A stretch of 64,000 nucleotides of DNA from NCBI GenBank assembly GCA_046566485.1, contig JBKHWO010000045.1, positions 3,664-67,663 on the forward strand, read 5' to 3'. The notes under the pieces are model-generated. The model worked only from the letters and a program-made list of their open reading frames with translations. It was not told the origin of the DNA and did no database searches. Made by a program: the position numbers and the translations under genes. Positions within the stretch are counted from its first letter, which is position 1, and every line of letters begins with the position of its first letter. Below are positions 4,414 to 43,291 of this stretch, piece after piece. The DNA comes from Alphaproteobacteria bacterium. GTDB lineage: Bacteria; Pseudomonadota; Alphaproteobacteria; Sphingomonadales; Sphingomonadaceae.

Positions 4414-6450
4414 CTACGTCCCCACCAGCGCGGTCAGCGTGTCCACGGTCAGTACCTGCGGCAATTGCCGGGGCGCGCCGCCGCCTGCCGGGTACCACAG
4501 GTAAAGCGGCACGCCTGCCGCGCCTTGCGCGGTGAGGTAGCGGGTGATCGCCGGGTCGCGCCGGGTCCAGTCGCCGCGCAGCACGACCACGCCCGCCTGC
4601 TTGAAGGCGGCGGCCGTTTCCGCGCGTTCGATCGCAGCATCTTCGTTGACCTTGCAGGTCAGGCACCAGTCGGCCGTCATATAGACGAACACCGGCTTGC
4701 CGCTCGCCCGGGCCGTGGTCAGCGCTTGCTCGCTGAATGGCGTGCTGGGCAGGATGGAACTGGTCTCGGCCGCGCCTTCACGGACCATGCCGGGGAGACC
4801 CGCCGCACCGAACAGCAGGACCGCGCCCAGCATCGCCCACCACCGCCCACCGGCAGCCCGGCCGTGATGCTGGCGGCGGCCGAGCAGGACCAGTAGCGCG
4901 ATGACGATCAGGGCGAGCAGTCCGGCGGAAAGAGCAAAACCTCCCCCGGCGAGGCGGCTCGCCAGCCACAGCAGGGCCAGTGCGGTCAGCCCCATCGGCA
5001 CGGCCATGGCCTTGCGGAACCACACCATCCACGCGCCCGGACGCGGCAGCATGGCGCGCAGGCGCGGGACATAGGCGATGGCCAGGAACGGCAGGGCGAG
5101 GCCCAGGCCCAACATGGCGAACAGCGCCAGTGCTTCGGGCACCGGCAGCAGCAAGGCTGCGCCCATCGCGGCGGCCATGAACGGTCCGGTACAGGGCGTG
5201 GCGGCAAAGGCGGCGAGCAGCCCGGTGGCAAAAGCGCCTTGCGGCGATCCGGCACTGGCAAAGCCGGGCACGGCGAATTCGAACAGTCCAAGCAGGTTCG
5301 CAGTAATCGCCACCGCGAGCAGCAGGAGGCCGACAACGACCAGCGGCTCCTGCAACTGGAACGCCCAGCCAACTTCCTGCCCTGCGGCGCGCAAGGCCAG
5401 CAGCAGGACGCCCAGCGCCAGGCAGGCGAGAACGACACCGGCGGTATAGGCCAGCCCTTCGGCCCGGGCATGGCGCTCGCTTTCGCCGGCGCGGGCCAGG
5501 CTCAGCGCTTTCAGCGAAAGGATCGGGAAGACGCAAGGCATGACGTTGAGCAGCAGGCCCCCGGCGAGTGCCGAGAGCAGCAGCACCCACAGCGCGGGGG
5601 TTGCCGCGCTACCAGTGGACAGCGGGGTTCCGCCTGCGGCCACGGCGCCGCGCTCTGCCTCCAGCGTCACGCCGTTGCCCGCCGCGTCAAAGCGCAGCAC
5701 AGCGCTCAGCCGCTGCGGGTCCAGCGGCTCGAACTTGGCACGCGGCAGTTCGACCACCAGCTTGTCGCCGTCACGGAAAAAGGCCTGCGGGGCGGCGTAG
5801 TCGACCACGCGGTGCTTGCCCAGAAACAGGTGCGGGCGCTCCAGCGCAACGGCGGCGGGCAGCGGGATCGCGATCCGCACCTTGCCGCCTTCGATGGCAA
5901 AAGTCGCCTTGGCACCCAGCGGAGCGGGCAGGGCGGCGCGCCATTGGTCAAAGCGGGGGTCAGGAGCGCCCGCCGTGCCAACCGTGACTTCGGCGGAAAG
6001 ATCAGCCTGTTCGGGCACGCAGACCTGATCGGTGCAGGCCAGCCAGTCGAGCCGGACGCGGACCGGCAGGCGCGTTCCGGGCGCGGCATTGGCTGGCAAG
6101 GCCAAGGTGGTCAGAACGGCATATTCATGTTCGTAGACATGGTTCATCAGGCCGCCGACGATCAGCGTTGCCGGAACCGGATAGGCCAGGTCTCCAGCCT
6201 TTGCTCCGGCGGGCAGGGTCCAGTTGGGGGAAAGCCCCAGTCCCGCATCGCCGGGATTGGACCAATAGCCGTGCCAGCCTTTGTCGGGCGTCATCACGAA
6301 GGCCAGTTGAACCGTCCCGCCCGGTGCGGCGGGCCCTTCGACCACCAGCGCGGCCTTGATATGGGTCGGCGCGGCCAGGGCCGGAGCAGCCAGCAAAAGC
6401 GCGCAAAGCTGCAACAGCAGTGTAACAAGGCGGCGGTAGCTGCGGGCCAC
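4414..6450 (-). CDS. dsbD: DsbD-family thiol:disulfide interchange protein (N-terminal DsbC-like domain, TM domain, thioredoxin domain)
   Basis: WHGYWSNPGDAG, LNVMPCVFPIL, ATPCTGPF, TADWCLTCKVN motifs. Confidence 0.88.
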   Translation of the reverse strand: MARSYRRLVTLLLQLCALLLAAPALAAPTHIKAALVVEGPAAPGGTVQLAFVMTPDKGWHGYWSNPGDAGLGLSPNWTLPAGAKAGDLAYPVPATLIVGGLMNHVYEHEYAVLTTLALPANAAPGTRLPVRVRLDWLACTDQVCVPEQADLSAEVTVGTAGAPDPRFDQWRAALPAPLGAKATFAIEGGKVRIAIPLPAAVALERPHLFLGKHRVVDYAAPQAFFRDGDKLVVELPRAKFEPLDPQRLSAVLRFDAAGNGVTLEAERGAVAAGGTPLSTGSAATPALWVLLLSALAGGLLLNVMPCVFPILSLKALSLARAGESERHARAEGLAYTAGVVLACLALGVLLLALRAAGQEVGWAFQLQEPLVVVGLLLLAVAITANLLGLFEFAVPGFASAGSPQGAFATGLLAAFAATPCTGPFMAAAMGAALLLPVPEALALFAMLGLGLALPFLAIAYVPRLRAMLPRPGAWMVWFRKAMAVPMGLTALALLWLASRLAGGGFALSAGLLALIVIALLVLLGRRQHHGRAAGGRWWAMLGAVLLFGAAGLPGMVREGAAETSSILPSTPFSEQALTTARASGKPVFVYMTADWCLTCKVNEDAAIERAETAAAFKQAGVVVLRGDWTRRDPAITRYLTAQGAAGVPLYLWYPAGGGAPRQLPQVLTVDTLTALVGT

Positions 6451-6545
6451 TTTCGGTTAACTCCTTTGTTCTGCCTCTTGCACTCAGCCCGGGGCAGGGG
6501 CAACAGGCTGTTCTTCGTAACCCGTACCTATTTTAGGGAAGTTCC

Positions 6546-8237
6546 ATGCGCCGCATCGTTGCCCCTCTTGCCGTTTCGCTTGCTCTTGCCCTGGCCGCTG
6601 GCGCTCCCGCCGCAGCCGAACCCGCGCAGAACCCGGCGCAGCCTGCGGCGGAAGTACCTGCTGCCGCCCCGGCCAATCCGCCGCGCCTGATCGTTGCGGT
6701 TTCGATCGACCAGTTCAGCGCCGATACCTTCGCCAAGTTCCGCCAGCACTACAGCGGCGGTTTCCTGCGTCTGACAAATGGCGTGGTATTCCCCTCGGGC
6801 TATCAGTCGCACGCCGCGACCGAAACTTGCCCCGGCCATTCGACCCTGCTGACCGGGGTTCATCCGGCGCGCAACGGGATCATCGCCAATTCCTGGTTCG
6901 AACCCGATGGCCCGCGCGGCACGACCTCGATCTATTGCGCCGAAGATGCGACCGACCCGGCCAGCTCAGCGCGCAATCCGGTTGTCTCGGCCCGCAATCT
7001 CAAGGTGCCGACGCTGGGTGAGATGATGAAAAACGTCAACGCCGCGACCCGCAACGTCGCGGTTTCGGCCAAGGACCGCGCCGTGATGATGATGGGCGGG
7101 CACAAGATCGACGCCGCCTGGTGGTGGAAGGGCGGGTCCTTCGTCAGTTTCAAGGATCGCGCGGCTACTCCCGCCGTCCAGGCCGTCAACACCAAGGCTG
7201 CGGCGACGATCAAGGCCGGGGCCAAGGCCCTGCCGATCCCGGTCTGGTGCCAGTCGTCCGACTATGCTGTCCCGGTTGGCAAGACCACGCTGGGCACCGG
7301 CCGGTTCGCGCTGGAAGCGGGCAAGGAAAACCAATTCCGCGTCTCGCCGCGGATGGATGCCGCCACGGTCGATCTGGCCATCGGCCTGGCCGAGGAAATG
7401 AAGCTGGGCAAGGGTCCGGCGACCGACCTGCTCTCGGTCTCGCTGTCCGCGACCGACTATGTCGGCCATGCCACCGGGGTTTCGGGATCGGAAATGTGCA
7501 TCCTGCAGAACCAGCTCGATCAGGATCTGGGCCGGCTGTTCAAGTACCTCGACGGCAAGGGGATCGATTACCTGGTCGTGCTGACTGCTGACCACGGCGG
7601 GCTCGACATGCCCGAGCGGATGGACCAGCAGGCCTATCCCAAGGCGCAGCGCGTCAACGTGGCACTGACCCCGGACAACCTGTCCAAGACCGTCGCGGCG
7701 AAGACCGGCATTGCGGTCGACGGACCGCTGGTCTTCGGCGATGCGCCGATGGGCGACCTCTATGTCAGCCGCAAGCTTGACGCGGCGCAGCGCGCCAAGG
7801 TGATCGCCGCGCTGGTCGAAACGCTGAAGGCCAGCCCGCAGGTCGCCGATGCCTTCACCGGCGAGGACCTGGCTGCCGTGCCGGTGCCCAGCGGCGATCC
7901 GCAGGACTGGACGCTGAAGCAGCGCGCCCGCGCTTCGTACCAGGCGGGTCGTTCGGGCGACGTGGTGCTGATCCTGGGGCGGACCGTGACTCCGATCCCC
8001 GAGCCGATGCCCGGTGCCTATGTCGCCACCCACGGCAGCGCGTTCGACTATGACCGCCGCGTGCCGATCCTGTTCTGGCGCAAGGGCCTGCGCTCGTTCG
8101 AGCAGCCGCAGCCGGTCGAGACGGTCGATATCGCGCCGACCCTGGCGGCGGTGCTGGGCATGAAGGTGCCGGACGGAACCTTCGACGGCCGCTGCCTCGA
8201 TCTTGATGGCGGGGCGGGGGACACCTGCGCCAAGTAG
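6546..8237 (+). CDS. secreted alkaline phosphatase-superfamily enzyme (PhoK/PafA-like, Thr nucleophile)
   Basis: Signal peptide; SIDQF, TETCPGHSTLLTG, DYVGH, TADHG, THGS motifs. Confidence 0.88.
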   Translation: MRRIVAPLAVSLALALAAGAPAAAEPAQNPAQPAAEVPAAAPANPPRLIVAVSIDQFSADTFAKFRQHYSGGFLRLTNGVVFPSGYQSHAATETCPGHSTLLTGVHPARNGIIANSWFEPDGPRGTTSIYCAEDATDPASSARNPVVSARNLKVPTLGEMMKNVNAATRNVAVSAKDRAVMMMGGHKIDAAWWWKGGSFVSFKDRAATPAVQAVNTKAAATIKAGAKALPIPVWCQSSDYAVPVGKTTLGTGRFALEAGKENQFRVSPRMDAATVDLAIGLAEEMKLGKGPATDLLSVSLSATDYVGHATGVSGSEMCILQNQLDQDLGRLFKYLDGKGIDYLVVLTADHGGLDMPERMDQQAYPKAQRVNVALTPDNLSKTVAAKTGIAVDGPLVFGDAPMGDLYVSRKLDAAQRAKVIAALVETLKASPQVADAFTGEDLAAVPVPSGDPQDWTLKQRARASYQAGRSGDVVLILGRTVTPIPEPMPGAYVATHGSAFDYDRRVPILFWRKGLRSFEQPQPVETVDIAPTLAAVLGMKVPDGTFDGRCLDLDGGAGDTCAK

Positions 8238-8357
8238 GCCCGCCTGACCTTTTGGGCCTTCGACAAGGCCCGGCAGAGCGGGTAACAGGGGCGAAGCGAT
8301 TCCTGACAACCTGCCGTGCCGAGCCTGGCGACGCACGGTGCATAGCTGGCAAGAGAG

Positions 8358-9572
8358 ATGACCGATAAACGCGATCTCGTGATCCTGGGCGGTGGGCTGG
8401 TGGGGATGACCCTGGCGCTCGCCGCGGCGAAGAAGGGCATCACCAGCCATGTGATCGACAAGGCTCTGCCCGAGGAACTGACCGCCGAAGGCGTGGATGG
8501 CCGCGCCTCGGCTATTTCGACCGCCAGCTGGAACCTGTTCTGCAACATCGGTCTGGAAGAGCGGCTGGCCCCGCTCGGCTGTCCGATTGAGGCAATTGCC
8601 GTGACCGACGGGATGAAGCCCGGGCGGATCGACTTCAAGCCGCAGCCGGGCGATGGCACGCTGGGCCGGATGTACGCCAATCGCGACATCCGCCTTGCCC
8701 TGTTTGATGCGGCGCGCGGGGAATCCGCGATTGCCTGGTCCAGCGGAGTCGAACCGGTGGAGCGGGAGCGCGGCGAGCATGGCGTGGCCGTGGAGCTGAG
8801 CGACGGCCGCACGGTCCAGGGTAGCTTGCTGGTCGGCGCGGAAGGGCGGCAGAGCCCGACGCGCAAGGAAGCGGGCCTCAATTCGGCGCGTTGGGACTAT
8901 AGCCACCGCGCTTTCGTCACGGGCATCACCCACGAAAAGCCGCATGGCGGGGTCGCTTGGGAGATCTTCTACCCGGCGGGGCCACTGGCCTTGCTGCCCC
9001 TGCTCGATCTGCCTGACGGACGCCACCGCAGCGCCGTGGTCTGGACCTTTGACGAAAAGGATGCCGCCGGGGTCGCCGCGCTGAGCGACGCGGTGTTCAT
9101 CGGCGAAATGGCCCAGCGGCTCGAAGGTATTTTCGGCAAGATCGAACTGAATGCCCCGCGGATGAGCTATCCGCTGAACTTCCACCACGCCCCGCGGATC
9201 GTCGAGCAGCGACTGGCTCTGGTCGGCGATGCGGCGCACGGGATGCACCCGATTGCCGGACAAGGGCTGAACCTGGGCCTGCGCGATGTCGGTGTGCTGG
9301 TCGAATGCCTGGCCGAGGGCATGCGGCTCGGTCTCGATCCGGGCGATGCCCAGGTGCTGGCGCGCTATGAACGCTGGCGCAGCCTGGACAACACCACGGT
9401 CATGGCCACGACCGATGCGATCGTCCGCTTGTTCGGCGTGCCTGGCCGTTTGCCCAGCCTGGTACGGCGCATTGGCATGGCCGGAGTCCAGCGTTCGGGC
9501 TGGCTCAAGCACTTCTTCATGGATGAAGCCCGCGGCATGTCAGGCGACCTGCCGCAATTGCTCCGCGCCTAG
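8358..9572 (+). CDS. UbiH/UbiF/VisC/COQ6-family FAD-dependent hydroxylase
   Basis: GGGLVG FAD motif, GAEGRQS, GDAAHGMHPIAGQGLNLG. Confidence 0.9.
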   Translation: MTDKRDLVILGGGLVGMTLALAAAKKGITSHVIDKALPEELTAEGVDGRASAISTASWNLFCNIGLEERLAPLGCPIEAIAVTDGMKPGRIDFKPQPGDGTLGRMYANRDIRLALFDAARGESAIAWSSGVEPVERERGEHGVAVELSDGRTVQGSLLVGAEGRQSPTRKEAGLNSARWDYSHRAFVTGITHEKPHGGVAWEIFYPAGPLALLPLLDLPDGRHRSAVVWTFDEKDAAGVAALSDAVFIGEMAQRLEGIFGKIELNAPRMSYPLNFHHAPRIVEQRLALVGDAAHGMHPIAGQGLNLGLRDVGVLVECLAEGMRLGLDPGDAQVLARYERWRSLDNTTVMATTDAIVRLFGVPGRLPSLVRRIGMAGVQRSGWLKHFFMDEARGMSGDLPQLLRA

Positions 9573-39527: not shown

Positions 39528-40289
39528 ATGCATTCGCTGCCGCTGCTCCACCGCCTGACCGGAACCCCGGTGATCCTGCTGGGCGAGGGCGAGGCGGGAG
39601 TGGCCAAGCGGCGCTTGCTGGAACGTGCCGGGGCGCAGATCGTCGGCGAGGATGATGCTTCGGCGCGCCTCGCCTTCATCGCGCTGGACGAGCCGGAGGA
39701 AGCTGCAGCGCGGCTGAAAGCGCGGGGCCTGCTGCTCAACGTCACCGACCGCCCGGAGCTGTGCGACTTCACCGTGCCGAGCATTCTGGAGCGCGGGCCG
39801 GTGCTGATCGCGGTGGGGACGGGCGGCGCCTCCGCCGGTCTGGCCAAGGCGCTGCGCTTGCGGCTGGAAGCTCTGCTGCCAGCCTCGCTGGGACCACTGG
39901 CCGAAGGGCTTCAGGCGGCGCGCTCCGCGCTGCGTCAGCGGTTTCCGCTTGGCGCTGAGCGCCGCCGCGCGCTCGACCTTGCCCTGGCCGAAGGCGGGGC
40001 GCTCGATCCCCTCCGCGCCGAAAGTGCCGCGCGGCTGCCCGATTGGCTCGAAGGCGCGGCTGCGGGCGGTGAAGGCCGGGTTGAATTTACCGTCGCCAGC
40101 GACGATCCCGACGACCTGACCCTGCGCCAGGCGCGCTGGCTCGGCGCGGCCGATCTGGTTGTCTACGAAGCCGGGGTGAGCAGCGAGATCCTCTCTCGCG
40201 CGCGCGCCGATGCCAGCCGCGCCGAATTGCCGCGCGGCGCGAAAGTCCCCTCTGGCGAAGGGCTGATCGTCGTTATTCGGCGGGGCTGA
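39528..40289 (+). CDS. siroheme synthase N-terminal part (precorrin-2 dehydrogenase/ferrochelatase, CysG-like)
   Basis: LLGEGEAG..KRRLL, NVTDRPELCDF, AVGTGG.S, DDLTLR. Confidence 0.85.
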   Translation: MHSLPLLHRLTGTPVILLGEGEAGVAKRRLLERAGAQIVGEDDASARLAFIALDEPEEAAARLKARGLLLNVTDRPELCDFTVPSILERGPVLIAVGTGGASAGLAKALRLRLEALLPASLGPLAEGLQAARSALRQRFPLGAERRRALDLALAEGGALDPLRAESAARLPDWLEGAAAGGEGRVEFTVASDDPDDLTLRQARWLGAADLVVYEAGVSSEILSRARADASRAELPRGAKVPSGEGLIVVIRRG

Positions 40290-40671
40290 GCAGGATTTTC
40301 ATCTGTGCCAGGGCAATCGGCTTGCTCCGGTCATCCTGCCAGCATTCGGCATTGACCAGCGCGACGCGGCGTCCGGCGCGGGTGACACTGCCCACGGCGA
40401 AGGTGCGTTGTTCGGTGCCGCCGCGCATGAATTCCACCTGCACGTTAACTGGTTTCAAGCGCATAGTTTCGCCGCGCCGCTCCATTTCGGCGCGCAGCGC
40501 GGCCATGCAGGCCATTTCCATCAGCCCGCTCATTGCTCCGCCGTGGAGAAAACCGGGACGCCCGGCGACACGTTCGGAATAGTCGAAGAACAGGACGGGG
40601 CTGCCAGCCTCGTCATGGTCGACGGCGATGCCCAGGGCATCGGCATAAGGGGGCAGGTCGTTGCCGGTCAC
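40273..40671 (-). CDS. PaaI-family thioesterase
   Basis: GRPGFLHGGAMSGLME hot-dog motif; GTG start coupled to the upstream stop. Confidence 0.82.
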   Translation of the reverse strand: MTGNDLPPYADALGIAVDHDEAGSPVLFFDYSERVAGRPGFLHGGAMSGLMEMACMAALRAEMERRGETMRLKPVNVQVEFMRGGTEQRTFAVGSVTRAGRRVALVNAECWQDDRSKPIALAQMKILLSPAE

Positions 40672-41135
40672 AGGTAGGTTCCGTGGGTTGCCATGAAGGT
40701 CCCGGTGACATGGGCCACCGGATCGTCCGGGTCGCCATCGTGGGCAATGCCGCGGATAAAGCTGATCGTGCGGGTTAGCTTGTAGCATTCGCCGCGTCCG
40801 GTCACGGTGCGTCCGGGCACCGCGGCGCGCATGTAATCGACTCTTAGGTCAAGCGTGGCGTGGGGGACGAAGCGCTTGCATAGGGTCCAGACCGACATCG
40901 ACGTCGCATTGTCCATCAGGCTGATGATCGGGCCCGAGGCCAGCACCCCGGTCTCGGCCACGCCGACCAGCTCTTCGCGCCACGGCAGGGTGAGTTCGAC
41001 CCAGTCCGGGCCGTGGGCATGATAGGCGATCCCCAGCCAGCCACCATGGCCGTGCCGAGTCGTCAGCTTGGAGGCACGGGCCGGATCAAACACGAAGTCC
41101 GGTGGCAGATCGTGCAGGTTCTTGGGCTTGTCCAT
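40668..41135 (-). CDS. PaaI-family thioesterase
   Basis: LASGPIISLMDN, ATLDLRVDYMR, VAHVTGTFM. Confidence 0.85.
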   Translation of the reverse strand: MDKPKNLHDLPPDFVFDPARASKLTTRHGHGGWLGIAYHAHGPDWVELTLPWREELVGVAETGVLASGPIISLMDNATSMSVWTLCKRFVPHATLDLRVDYMRAAVPGRTVTGRGECYKLTRTISFIRGIAHDGDPDDPVAHVTGTFMATHGTYL

Positions 41136-41257
41136 GGCAGTTCCTCTGCTGCCCACCGGGCGCCATTACAATCTTTTAATTTCAAAAATGCGTGCGGATG
41201 GTCCGGATAGGGCGGGTCTGAAGGGTATGGTGCCCTTCCGGCTTGAAGGAAAACATC

Positions 41258-41407
41258 ATGAACCTGCCCACCATCGATATTTCCACTTTGCCTGATCTCG
41301 ACAAGCTGACCGGTGTGTTCGGAAGCCTTGCCCAGCCGCTGCAGGCTGCTTCGTCGGATGATACGATCGTGATCATCATGGCCTTCCTTTACGAAGTGCT
41401 TAAGTAA
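41258..41407 (+). CDS. 49-aa small protein / candidate precursor peptide (absent from ORF track)
   Basis: RBS GAAGGAAAAC, then MNLPTIDISTLPDLDKLTGVFGSLAQPLQAASSDDTIVIIMAFLYEVLK*; 16 bp before the next ATG. Confidence 0.7.
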   Translation: MNLPTIDISTLPDLDKLTGVFGSLAQPLQAASSDDTIVIIMAFLYEVLK

Positions 41408-41423
41408 GGCGCCGGGGCTGCGA

Positions 41424-42401
41424 ATGCATATCCGGCCAGAACTGGCAGCGCTGCGGAGCAACGATGCTCCGCAGCGATCCGCGCAGCAGGCCTTGGCTGA
41501 TATCGCCCACGCCTGGCGCCTGACCGGCGACGGGGCCACGGTCGAAGCCGAACTGGTCCGCTTTCACCGCGGCGAGCGGCTGGAGAGGTTGCCCCTGCTG
41601 GGCGCGTTGTTCGCTCCGCAGAGCGATCGGGTCCGGGCCTTTCTCGACGGACTGTTGCAGCCCCTGCTGGCCCAGATCGGTTTGGAACCCCTGGGCCAAT
41701 CGCCGCTGCGCTATTCCACCAGCGATGCCGCGACCGGCATTGTCCTGGCCCGCTGCGCGACCAGCGCGCTGATTCTGCATTATACCAGCGGGCCTGGCTT
41801 CTCGCGCCAGCCAGCAGCACAGACCGCGGGTTTTCTTCCCGCCGAGACGTGGGAGCGCGTGCTCGCCGGTTCAGCCGAAGCGACCCGGGTGCGCCTTGCC
41901 GGTACCGCGTCCGACCGGGCAGATCTGCGGCTGGCGGCCGTCCGGCTGCAGGCTGGTGATGTGCGCCACCGCCATGGCCGCGACGAGGCGCTGGTGCTGC
42001 GGGCCGTGCCGACCAGTCTGGTCCAGTTGCGTCTGCAGCGACGCAGCGACGAGGCGCAACCCGTCCGCCATTATCGGCTGAGCGATGGGCAATTGGTCCA
42101 CCAGGCGGCAGGCACCCCGCGCGATAGCCGGTTGGAACTGAGCGCCGCCTTGCTGGGCCGGATGAAGCGCCGCGATGCGGCCCCGGTGCTTGCCGCCATG
42201 GTTAAGGAGAGTGGATCGGATGCACTGCGTTGGCAAATCCTGCGCGAATGCCTTGCCCTCGATACCGCTACGGGGTTTCGTGCGCTCTGTTCGATTTGTG
42301 ATCGCGCCGCCGATCCCTTGAACCAGCACGCGGCTACCTTGCGCGCCACCCTGCTGGCCCGGCACCCGTCGTTGAAGGATTTGATGCCATGCCCCGCGTG
42401 A
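41424..42401 (+). CDS. hypothetical protein: degenerate cupin-like region plus HEAT-like C-terminus
   Basis: 325 aa; RLQAGD...SLVQLRL and DA...L....SD.LRW segments align by eye with the downstream gene. Confidence 0.75.
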   Translation: MHIRPELAALRSNDAPQRSAQQALADIAHAWRLTGDGATVEAELVRFHRGERLERLPLLGALFAPQSDRVRAFLDGLLQPLLAQIGLEPLGQSPLRYSTSDAATGIVLARCATSALILHYTSGPGFSRQPAAQTAGFLPAETWERVLAGSAEATRVRLAGTASDRADLRLAAVRLQAGDVRHRHGRDEALVLRAVPTSLVQLRLQRRSDEAQPVRHYRLSDGQLVHQAAGTPRDSRLELSAALLGRMKRRDAAPVLAAMVKESGSDALRWQILRECLALDTATGFRALCSICDRAADPLNQHAATLRATLLARHPSLKDLMPCPA

Positions 42402-43291
42402 TCGATCTGACCGATTCGCACCGTGCCTCGCTGGATGAATGCGTCGATGCGCTGGCAGCCACGGGATTCGACCCCGGCGAAGAGGAAAGCCTGCACCATG
42501 CCGCGCTGTGGCTCCGCCGGCTGGGCAACGATCAGGATTTTCTGGGGGACATCCTGATTGACGAACTGGGCCGTCGCCACCGCGAGGATGTGCTCGACAA
42601 CAGCTATGGCCCGCAGGTGGTGATGCTGGCGCCGCCGCGCGGCGACTTCTTCATCCGCGCCAATATCTGGCCGTCCGAGCAGGACCACATGGTCCGCGCC
42701 AGTGGCGGCAGCTCGTTCGTGCTGGACCTGCCGCACGATCACAACTTCAATTTCCTGACCCTGGGCTACTTCGGGCCGGGCTATTGGAGTGACTATTACG
42801 AGTACGACTATGCCGAAGTCGCCGGCTTTCGTGGCGAGCCGGTTCCATCGCTACGCTTTGTCGAACGGTCGCGGCTCGAACCGGGCAAACTGATGCTCTA
42901 CCGCGCCCATCTGGACGTCCATGCCCAGCTTCCGGCTGACTCGCTCTCGGTCTCGCTCAACCTCATGCACACCACGGGCGCGCAGGGCTGGCTCGATCAG
43001 TATCGCTTTGACCTGGAGCAGGGCACCGTTGCGGGTATCCTTTCGCCGGGGCCAAGCGATGCGCTGCTGCGGGTTGCGGTCGGATTGGGCAGCGCGGAGG
43101 CCTTGGACCTGGCCCACCGCTTTGCGCGGCACCACCCCAGCGATCGGTTGCGCCTGGCTTGTTGGGACGCGCTGGCGGCCGAAGCGACCGGTCCTGGCGC
43201 GCGCGATGCGCTGTGGCGCGAAGCCGAGCGGTCAGGCAGCCGGCTGGTTGCGATGGAGGCCCGGATGCGCCGCGCCGAAATCGCGGCTTAG
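42389..43291 (+). CDS. cupin (cysteine-dioxygenase-like) metalloenzyme with HEAT-like C-terminus
   Basis: RANIWP, PHDHNFNFLT (H116, H118), LEPG...DVH (H178); overlaps the upstream gene by 13 bp. Confidence 0.75.
   Translation: MPRVIDLTDSHRASLDECVDALAATGFDPGEEESLHHAALWLRRLGNDQDFLGDILIDELGRRHREDVLDNSYGPQVVMLAPPRGDFFIRANIWPSEQDHMVRASGGSSFVLDLPHDHNFNFLTLGYFGPGYWSDYYEYDYAEVAGFRGEPVPSLRFVERSRLEPGKLMLYRAHLDVHAQLPADSLSVSLNLMHTTGAQGWLDQYRFDLEQGTVAGILSPGPSDALLRVAVGLGSAEALDLAHRFARHHPSDRLRLACWDALAAEATGPGARDALWREAERSGSRLVAMEARMRRAEIAA

Follow-up and report, generated by a model that had tools for sequence, protein, structure and literature searches.

The window analysed here is a 64,000-nucleotide stretch of DNA. 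Reading positions 40900-41800 and listing the open reading frames showed a + strand ORF at 41243-41407, with an in-frame ATG at 41258 from which a 49-aa peptide, MNLPTIDISTLPDLDKLTGVFGSLAQPLQAASSDDTIVIIMAFLYEVLK, is encoded up to a TAA stop at 41405-41407. This peptide gene is followed on the same strand by two longer ORFs, referred to here as ORF-A and ORF-B (A and B). The features are as follows.

41213-41245, + strand: stem-loop in the 5′-UTR. The core 7-bp stem is 41220-41226 paired with 41232-41238, the outer stem is 41213-41219 paired with 41239-41245, and the structure ends at the Shine-Dalgarno sequence.
41245-41250, + strand: Shine-Dalgarno sequence GAAGGA, 7 nt before the ATG.
41258-41407, + strand: small-peptide gene, 49 codons plus TAA.
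41258-41326, + strand: residues 1-23, conserved N-terminal, leader-like block MNLPTIDISTLPDLDKLTGVFGS, which holds the family-wide motif P12-D-L14-x-x-x-T18-G19-x-x-G22-S23.
41327-41353, + strand: residues 24-32, variable spacer LAQPLQAAS.
41354-41404, + strand: residues 33-49, C-terminal block SDDTIVIIMAFLYEVLK, in which S-D-D occupies the columns that hold GG-x-x-Cys in the main family branch, and M41 and Y45 are nearly invariant in this clade.
41424-42401, + strand: ORF-A, 325 aa, a paralogue of B (last cupin strands plus HEAT repeats) without the putative metal-binding histidines, the presumed non-catalytic partner.
42389-43291, + strand: ORF-B, 300 aa, predicted to contain an N-terminal helical part, a cupin barrel (about 77-217) and C-terminal HEAT repeats (about 220-300), with a putative 3-His metal site at H116, H118 and H178.

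The peptide stop is 16 nt from the A start and B overlaps the end of A by 13 nt, an arrangement which we read as translational coupling. Upstream, on the other strand, lie two hotdog thioesterase paralogues, and ruvX/yqgF lies downstream and convergent. The − strand ORFs that overlap the region (41063-41539 and 41182-41379) are the usual long spurious frames of a 65% G+C genome. A promoter and terminator consensus scan found no sigma-70-like promoter, and no terminator or attenuator between the peptide and A.

The locus had been singled out by a sequence-only reading, which described a peptide of bipartite leader/core-like design with a repeated LP.(I/L)D element, an Ala/Ser/Gln spacer, a ribosome-binding site and an upstream hairpin. 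This observation was confirmed almost to the letter. GAAGGAAAAC lies at 41245-41254, so that AAGGA sits 7-8 nt before the ATG, and the inverted repeat GAAGGG/CCCTTC with loop TATGGTG lies at 41220-41238. Both LPx(I/L)D copies (LPTID and LPDLD) are present, but only the second is conserved outside the Novosphingobium clade; the first is clade-specific and not a general repeat design. The description of the ORF as unannotated applies only to the ORF track used in that reading, since homologues have been called on many public contigs as ‘hypothetical protein’.

Conservation of the frame in relatives and the ratio of non-synonymous to synonymous change had been proposed beforehand as tests of the ORF. 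A search of 5.8 billion proteins returned 19 relatives of 49-68 aa sharing 61-98% identity, the alignment of which has 18 invariant columns, mostly in the first 23 residues. A scan of one genome per species found 101 loci, of which 80 were kept; almost all are Novosphingobium, with a few other Sphingomonadaceae and Erythrobacteraceae, which places the window in Novosphingobium. The ORF was intact in 80 of 80 loci, at 48-59 codons, and 78 of them start with ATG at the same place. The alternative TTG start at 41243 is not supported, since the relatives start at the ATG and carry a purine-rich Shine-Dalgarno sequence (GGGGA/AGGGG) at the same distance. Variation sits at third codon positions (entropy 0.80/0.49/1.27 for positions 1/2/3). 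Between the window and its nearest relative (locus L001; L numbers denote individual loci), dN was 0.04 and dS 0.60, a dN/dS of 0.07. Selection is tripartite, with dN/dS of 0.095 for residues 1-24, 0.63 for the spacer (residues 25-35), which also shows high entropy at all codon positions, and 0.30 for the C-terminal block. The ORF is therefore a real, strongly conserved protein-coding gene. Direct evidence of expression is weak, as only low-depth metatranscriptome contigs of related strains cover the locus and say little about expression or the 5′ end.

We next examined the hairpin. The stem at 41213-41245 has a predicted stability of −17.1 kcal/mol, against −8.3 for shuffled sequences. In 77 relatives, a hairpin ending 7-25 nt before the ATG is on average 4.5 kcal/mol more stable than in shuffled sequence, and beats the shuffles in 92% of loci. 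RNAalifold, run on a structure-blind MAFFT alignment of 38 upstream regions, predicted exactly the same 7-bp stem, all seven pairs showing compensatory double changes. On that alignment 93.2% of cells pair, against 82.1% in shuffles (0 of 500 reach the observed value) and 41-57% when the partner is slid by 1-3 columns, and there are 32 double-change cells against 8 expected. G-U pairs are common while A-C pairs are rare, so the structure belongs to the + strand transcript, that is the peptide mRNA. The upstream gene being divergent, the stem is not its terminator. No Rfam family was matched, the only hit in 41000-41500 being a chance Prion_pknot match on the other strand (E 0.31). Because the stem stops just before the Shine-Dalgarno sequence, we infer that it may be a 5′-terminal stabiliser or a protein-binding element.

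A structured 5′-UTR directly upstream of A, together with an anti-Shine-Dalgarno pairing found in the main family, could suggest that the ORF is only a regulatory upstream ORF controlling A and B, or a chance ORF, with a product without function of its own. However, this is contradicted by the strong amino-acid-level purifying selection over the first 24 codons, by the conservation of a motif across at least 600 protein clusters, by the existence of tandem paralogous copies (see below) and by the absence of a terminator or attenuator between the peptide and A. We consider this reading very unlikely.

The order peptide-A-B is kept in 77-79 of the 80 loci, A following the peptide in 79 of them, and the exceptions are informative. 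In L048 an IS3 element sits between the peptide and A, and in L002 a TnpB-like element interrupts B. L064 has lost both A and B, and its peptide carries changes at otherwise invariant sites (L14F, D15G, F21L and G22E).

To get insight into A and B, we first compared them with family databases. Scans of the peptide, A, B and distant peptide types against Pfam, NCBIfam and PADLOC gave nothing beyond weak HEAT_2 matches (for A, at residues 240-305), with no PADLOC hit for the peptide, A or B at E <= 0.1. B belongs to a large family of 783 clusters at 50% identity, of which 616 have E <= 1e-10. While AlphaFold2 on the single B sequence reached a pLDDT of only 45.7, an alignment of 114 members gave a confident model (pLDDT 95.9, pTM 0.90), showing N-terminal helices, a cupin barrel and five C-terminal helices, which match HEAT-repeat proteins by sequence. 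Foldseek against the PDB placed thiol dioxygenases first, the top 20 hits being nearly all of this type (E 2e-8 to 5e-5, TM about 0.6 on target length): 3-mercaptopropionate dioxygenases of P. aeruginosa and A. vinelandii, mercaptosuccinate dioxygenase, CDO, ADO and plant cysteine oxidases (best matches including 4tlf, 6xb9 and 8vni). Nevertheless, the resemblance is by fold only. PDB sequence searches with B, A, the profiles of each and a cupin-only B profile gave only HEAT-repeat designs or nothing, the cupin-only profile finding no PDB sequence, and B has no match to the Pfam CDO or PCO_ADO families. Several NCBI records call B a ‘transposase’, which the model contradicts.

H116, H118 and H178, together with R90, W94 and Q180, are invariant in all 166 B proteins collected, and no Glu occupies the cupin motif-1 position. 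As judged from sequence alone, this HxH...H pattern resembles the His86/His88/His140 triad of CDO (PMC10989515). A conserved Tyr preceding PHDH throughout the family is Leu in the B of the window. We asked whether this Tyr tracks the presence of a Cys in the peptide; it is replaced only inside the Novosphingobium clade and stays Tyr in other Cys-less lineages (L083, L085, L091 and L121), so no independent correlation exists. Comparison of the A and B profiles by hhalign gave a probability of 94.7% (E 6e-8) over A171-317 and B157-302, with D-E-A-L in A where B has D-V-H-A-Q. A has no conserved histidine, and is therefore best read as a non-catalytic partner.

Beyond Novosphingobium, individual B homologues of 30-47% identity all showed the same organization of small ORF(s), then an A-like HEAT protein, then B, and so did an Alteromonas stellipolaris plasmid. 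A metagenome scan with a profile of distant B proteins (30-50% identity) gave 80 more loci. In all 45 of these with at least 1.4 kb of upstream sequence, an A-like ORF abuts B, and in 44 of the 45 a peptide HMM found homologues just upstream on the same strand, with no hit elsewhere among 26,129 ORF fragments. One to three peptide genes are present, two or three in tandem in several loci (L089, L094, L099, L101, L136 and L162).

All detected peptides align without large gaps to that of the window. The shared motif, the one feature common to all peptide types, is an aliphatic residue followed by P-(E/D)-L-x-T-x-(V/T)-(G/A)-x-x-G-S, whereas what follows differs by type. The main type carries K-Q-x-E-V-G-G-x-x-C-L-G plus an I/V/A/G-rich tail, its Cys being invariant in 120 of 120 top hits. 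An ‘alpha’ type carries L-E-P-V-T plus an I/V/A-rich tail and no Cys. The Novosphingobium type has a variable spacer, then S-D-D-T plus an I/V/M/F-rich tail. The profile search found at least 600 protein clusters, all ‘hypothetical protein’, from Sphingomonas, Allosphingosinicella, Sphingosinicella and metagenomes.

Neighbourhoods differ by lineage. Multi-peptide loci are flanked by HlyD and a MacB-type ATPase and permease upstream, and by an ABC ATPase and ABC-2 permease downstream (L088, L089, L094, L097 and L106/107). About ten loci have an ECF sigma factor gene and a 205-aa gene just upstream, while Sphingomonas-type loci have a TPR protein and an Fe/Mn superoxide dismutase (SOD) after B, among housekeeping genes. 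In contrast, the locus of the window has no transporter, protease or immunity gene, and the only protease-like neighbour seen was a weak TraB/PrgY match in L081.

The sequence-only reading proposed that the N-terminus is a recognition leader and the C-terminus either a modified core or a membrane anchor, and our results support this only in part. The leader-like N-terminus is supported, a modified core is plausible but chemically unproven, and the membrane anchor is not supported. Indeed, the hydrophobic run (T36-L48) is only 13 residues long, too short for a transmembrane helix, and is bounded by D34-D35 and E46 in a peptide of net charge about −4. This also bears on the possibility of an independent membrane-active peptide or toxin, such as a type I toxin or a leaderless bacteriocin, merely syntenic with A and B. 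Hydrophobic, I/V/A/G-rich C-terminal segments are found in all family members and ABC-2 ‘immunity-like’ transporters in some loci. However, besides the short run and the acidic character of the peptide, its most conserved part is the polar N-terminus, and it never occurred without A-B in the loci examined except in the one decaying copy (L064). This possibility is thus improbable. Lasso peptide, double-glycine bacteriocin, lipoprotein signal peptide and type I toxin readings were likewise rejected, the required enzymes or motifs being absent and the peptide acidic.

Taken together, these results establish a three-gene functional unit in which the peptide is the variable, multi-copy element and A and B are the constant ones. 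The conserved N-terminal motif, the neutral spacer, the diverse hydrophobic C-termini, the tandem copies and, in some lineages, the export-type and ABC-2 transporters are what one expects of a leader/core precursor and its tailoring complex. We therefore favour, with a probability of about 0.5, a model in which the peptide is the substrate of an A/B hetero-complex. In this view, the stem-loop, at or near the start of the mRNA, and the strong Shine-Dalgarno sequence would allow the peptide to be made in excess; its nearly invariant N-terminal 23 residues would dock on the complex, with A acting as recognition or scaffold subunit; and the spacer would let the S-D-D-T segment and the hydrophobic residues that follow reach the presumed mononuclear metal centre of B, where they would be oxidatively modified or coordinated. 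Since Asp-Asp stands here in place of the Cys of the main branch, the chemistry may differ between the two. What rests on the data is the coding status, the gene linkage, the family-wide motif, the predicted fold of B, the paralogy of A and B and the covariation of the RNA stem, whereas binding, the assignment of roles to each subunit, the identity of the metal and any modification or cleavage of the peptide are inferred.

Alternatively, the peptide may be an unmodified small subunit or regulator of A/B: an adaptor, an assembly factor or a pseudo-substrate capping the metal site through the Cys thiolate in the main branch and Asp carboxylates here. The true substrate of B would then be something else, for example a small thiol, or B would serve in O2 sensing. 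This main rival, which we consider less likely, is kept alive by the strict linkage and by the core-like, housekeeping context of a cassette that looks vertically inherited in Sphingomonadales, which is unusual for secondary-metabolite clusters. It also fits the lack of a protease or exporter in the locus of the window, the replacement of Cys by two possible metal ligands, and the ECF sigma factor and SOD neighbours in other lineages, which hint at a stress or redox module. In addition, the thiol-dioxygenase relatives ADO and PCO act as O2 sensors (PMC8503633). Conversely, tandem peptide genes with different C-terminal types and flanking MacB/HlyD and ABC-2 transporters fit exported products better than a fixed subunit, and the C-terminal parts are far more variable across the family than expected for a structural subunit.

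At its furthest, and only tentatively, the cassette could define a previously undescribed class of ribosomal peptide system, in which a thiol-dioxygenase-like 3-His cupin fused to HEAT repeats and its catalytically dead paralogue recognise the P-E/D-L-x-T-x-V/T-G-x-x-G-S leader and oxidatively process the following segment. This segment carries the invariant Cys in the main Sphingomonadales branch, which the Novosphingobium branch has switched to Asp-Asp. The outcome would be either an exported hydrophobic peptide or an O2/redox-responsive peptide switch. If the peptide is processed by A/B, a new enzyme type would be added to ribosomal peptide biosynthesis and a function given to a large, uncurated protein family (for the peptides, at least 600 clusters at 90% identity) currently labelled ‘hypothetical’ or, wrongly, ‘transposase’. 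If it is instead a regulatory pseudo-substrate, it would be a bacterial counterpart of peptide-directed thiol-dioxygenase oxygen sensing. The natural Cys to Asp-Asp switch offers a built-in experiment on what the metal centre does, and the three genes are small and soluble and occur in cultured Novosphingobium strains, for example Novosphingobium anseongense PS1R-30 (L030), N. aquiterrae (L043) and Novosphingobium sp. APW14 (L025), making the question directly testable. The Sphingomonas locus L175 is an example of a main-branch cassette with a Cys-containing peptide. Full-text literature searches found no description of this cassette.

Comparison with known systems places these observations in context. 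With double-glycine-leader and class II two-peptide bacteriocins, the family shares small peptides with polar leaders and hydrophobic, GxxxG-like C-terminal parts, pairs of different peptide types in one locus and, in the main branch, E-V-G-G before the hydrophobic part. However, the peptide of the window has no GG, no C39-peptidase ABC exporter was found among the neighbours scanned, and class II systems have no A/B-type proteins. Thiol dioxygenases (CDO, 3-mercaptopropionate dioxygenase, ADO and plant cysteine oxidases) are the closest structural matches of B, with N-terminal helices plus a cupin barrel and a similar HxH...H pattern, and ADO and PCO act on peptide or protein cysteines (PMC8503633), a Cys being invariant in the main peptide branch. 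B differs by the lack of a sequence-level match, by its extra HEAT domain and by its obligate paralogue. Moreover, the peptide of the window has no Cys, the obvious target of such an enzyme, although a small-molecule thiol cannot be excluded, and ADO and PCO need an N-terminal Cys, which none of these peptides has. The closest functional analogy is with RiPP systems in which a metallo-oxidase works with a non-catalytic partner, such as MNIO/DUF692 enzymes with partner proteins, cupin-like hydroxylases such as PbsQ of biphenomycin-like clusters also being known (PMC12257519). Here the predicted fold is a CDO-like cupin with a putative 3-His site, fused to HEAT repeats, instead of a TIM-barrel MNIO or a JmjC cupin, the partner is a paralogue of the enzyme, no PqqD-like RRE was detected in A or B, the locus of the window has no protease or exporter, and no product is known. 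As in these systems, nonetheless, a short precursor-like gene lies directly upstream of, and co-oriented with, an oxidase-like protein and a second protein that could bind the leader, the N-terminal motif is conserved while the C-terminal part varies, and other loci have tandem precursor copies and transporters.

The genes to which the following observations refer are, in window coordinates:
41258-41407, the peptide gene
42389-43291, ORF-B, within which 42722-42724 encodes Leu112
40273-40788 and 40668-41156 (both - strand), two tandem hotdog-fold (4HBT) thioesterase paralogues

The two thioesterase genes are transcribed divergently from the peptide gene. As listed, taking the longest ORFs, they overlap by about 120 nt, and one start codon is therefore probably located further downstream. 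The pair is conserved next to the cassette in 48-50 of the 80 related loci. The peptide gene itself has 52% G+C, against 65% for the window and 66-68% for A and B. The same was observed at third codon positions, where its GC3 is 0.68 compared to 0.76-0.79 for A and B.

Several NCBI/nr records name ORF-B and its homologues P0044, P0069, P0101, P0102, P0117 and P0138 (database proteins retrieved in our searches) 'transposase'. Since the confident model of this protein is a predicted CDO-like cupin plus HEAT repeats, this name is almost certainly an annotation error that has propagated. Similarly, one JGI record names the 49-aa peptide of cluster P0001, 98% identical to the window's peptide, 'DNA polymerase sigma', which is a spurious annotation.

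We further examined Leu112 of ORF-B, which occupies the position three residues before the PHDH motif. This position is a Tyr in at least 90% of the family and in all 93 non-Novosphingobium B proteins. Instead, it is Leu in the window, and L, I or W in 31 of 76 Novosphingobium B proteins. This replacement does not track the loss of the peptide Cys in other lineages.

Mobile elements have hit the cassette in two MAGs. In the related locus L048, an IS3-type OrfA/OrfB pair (6201-7372, - strand) sits between the peptide gene and A, while in L002 a TnpB/IS605-OrfB-like ORF (7429-8676, - strand) is inserted inside B, whose two halves lie at 7130-7522 and from about 9384. A third locus, L064, is the only one where the peptide gene remains (2020-2184) but A and B are absent, ruvX following directly. 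Its peptide carries substitutions at otherwise invariant positions (L14F, D15G, F21L and G22E), as if constraint were relaxed.

In the main, Sphingomonas-type branch, the 5' UTR about 45 nt upstream of the peptide ATG (loci L103, L117, L118, L123, L147, L152, L156 and others) reads TTTCCTC..TGTCGG-loop-CCGACA..GAGGGGA. This corresponds to an inner hairpin plus an outer pairing that would sequester the Shine-Dalgarno sequence, which suggests translational control. This is in contrast to the Novosphingobium stem-loop, which ends just before the Shine-Dalgarno sequence.

Two neighbour patterns recur around the cassette. In about ten loci, including L100 (2306-3564), L109, L115, L122 and L166, an ECF sigma factor gene plus a gene of 205 aa without a Pfam match lies just upstream of the peptide gene. 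In Sphingomonas-type loci, as in L103 (6029-7349), L173 and L175, genes for a TPR protein and an Fe/Mn superoxide dismutase lie just downstream of B. Finally, in one distant locus, L081, the gene after B (5891-6631) is the only protease-like candidate seen near any cassette. Its match is weak (E 0.006) and is to the TraB/PrgY/GumN family, which includes proteins that handle peptide pheromones.
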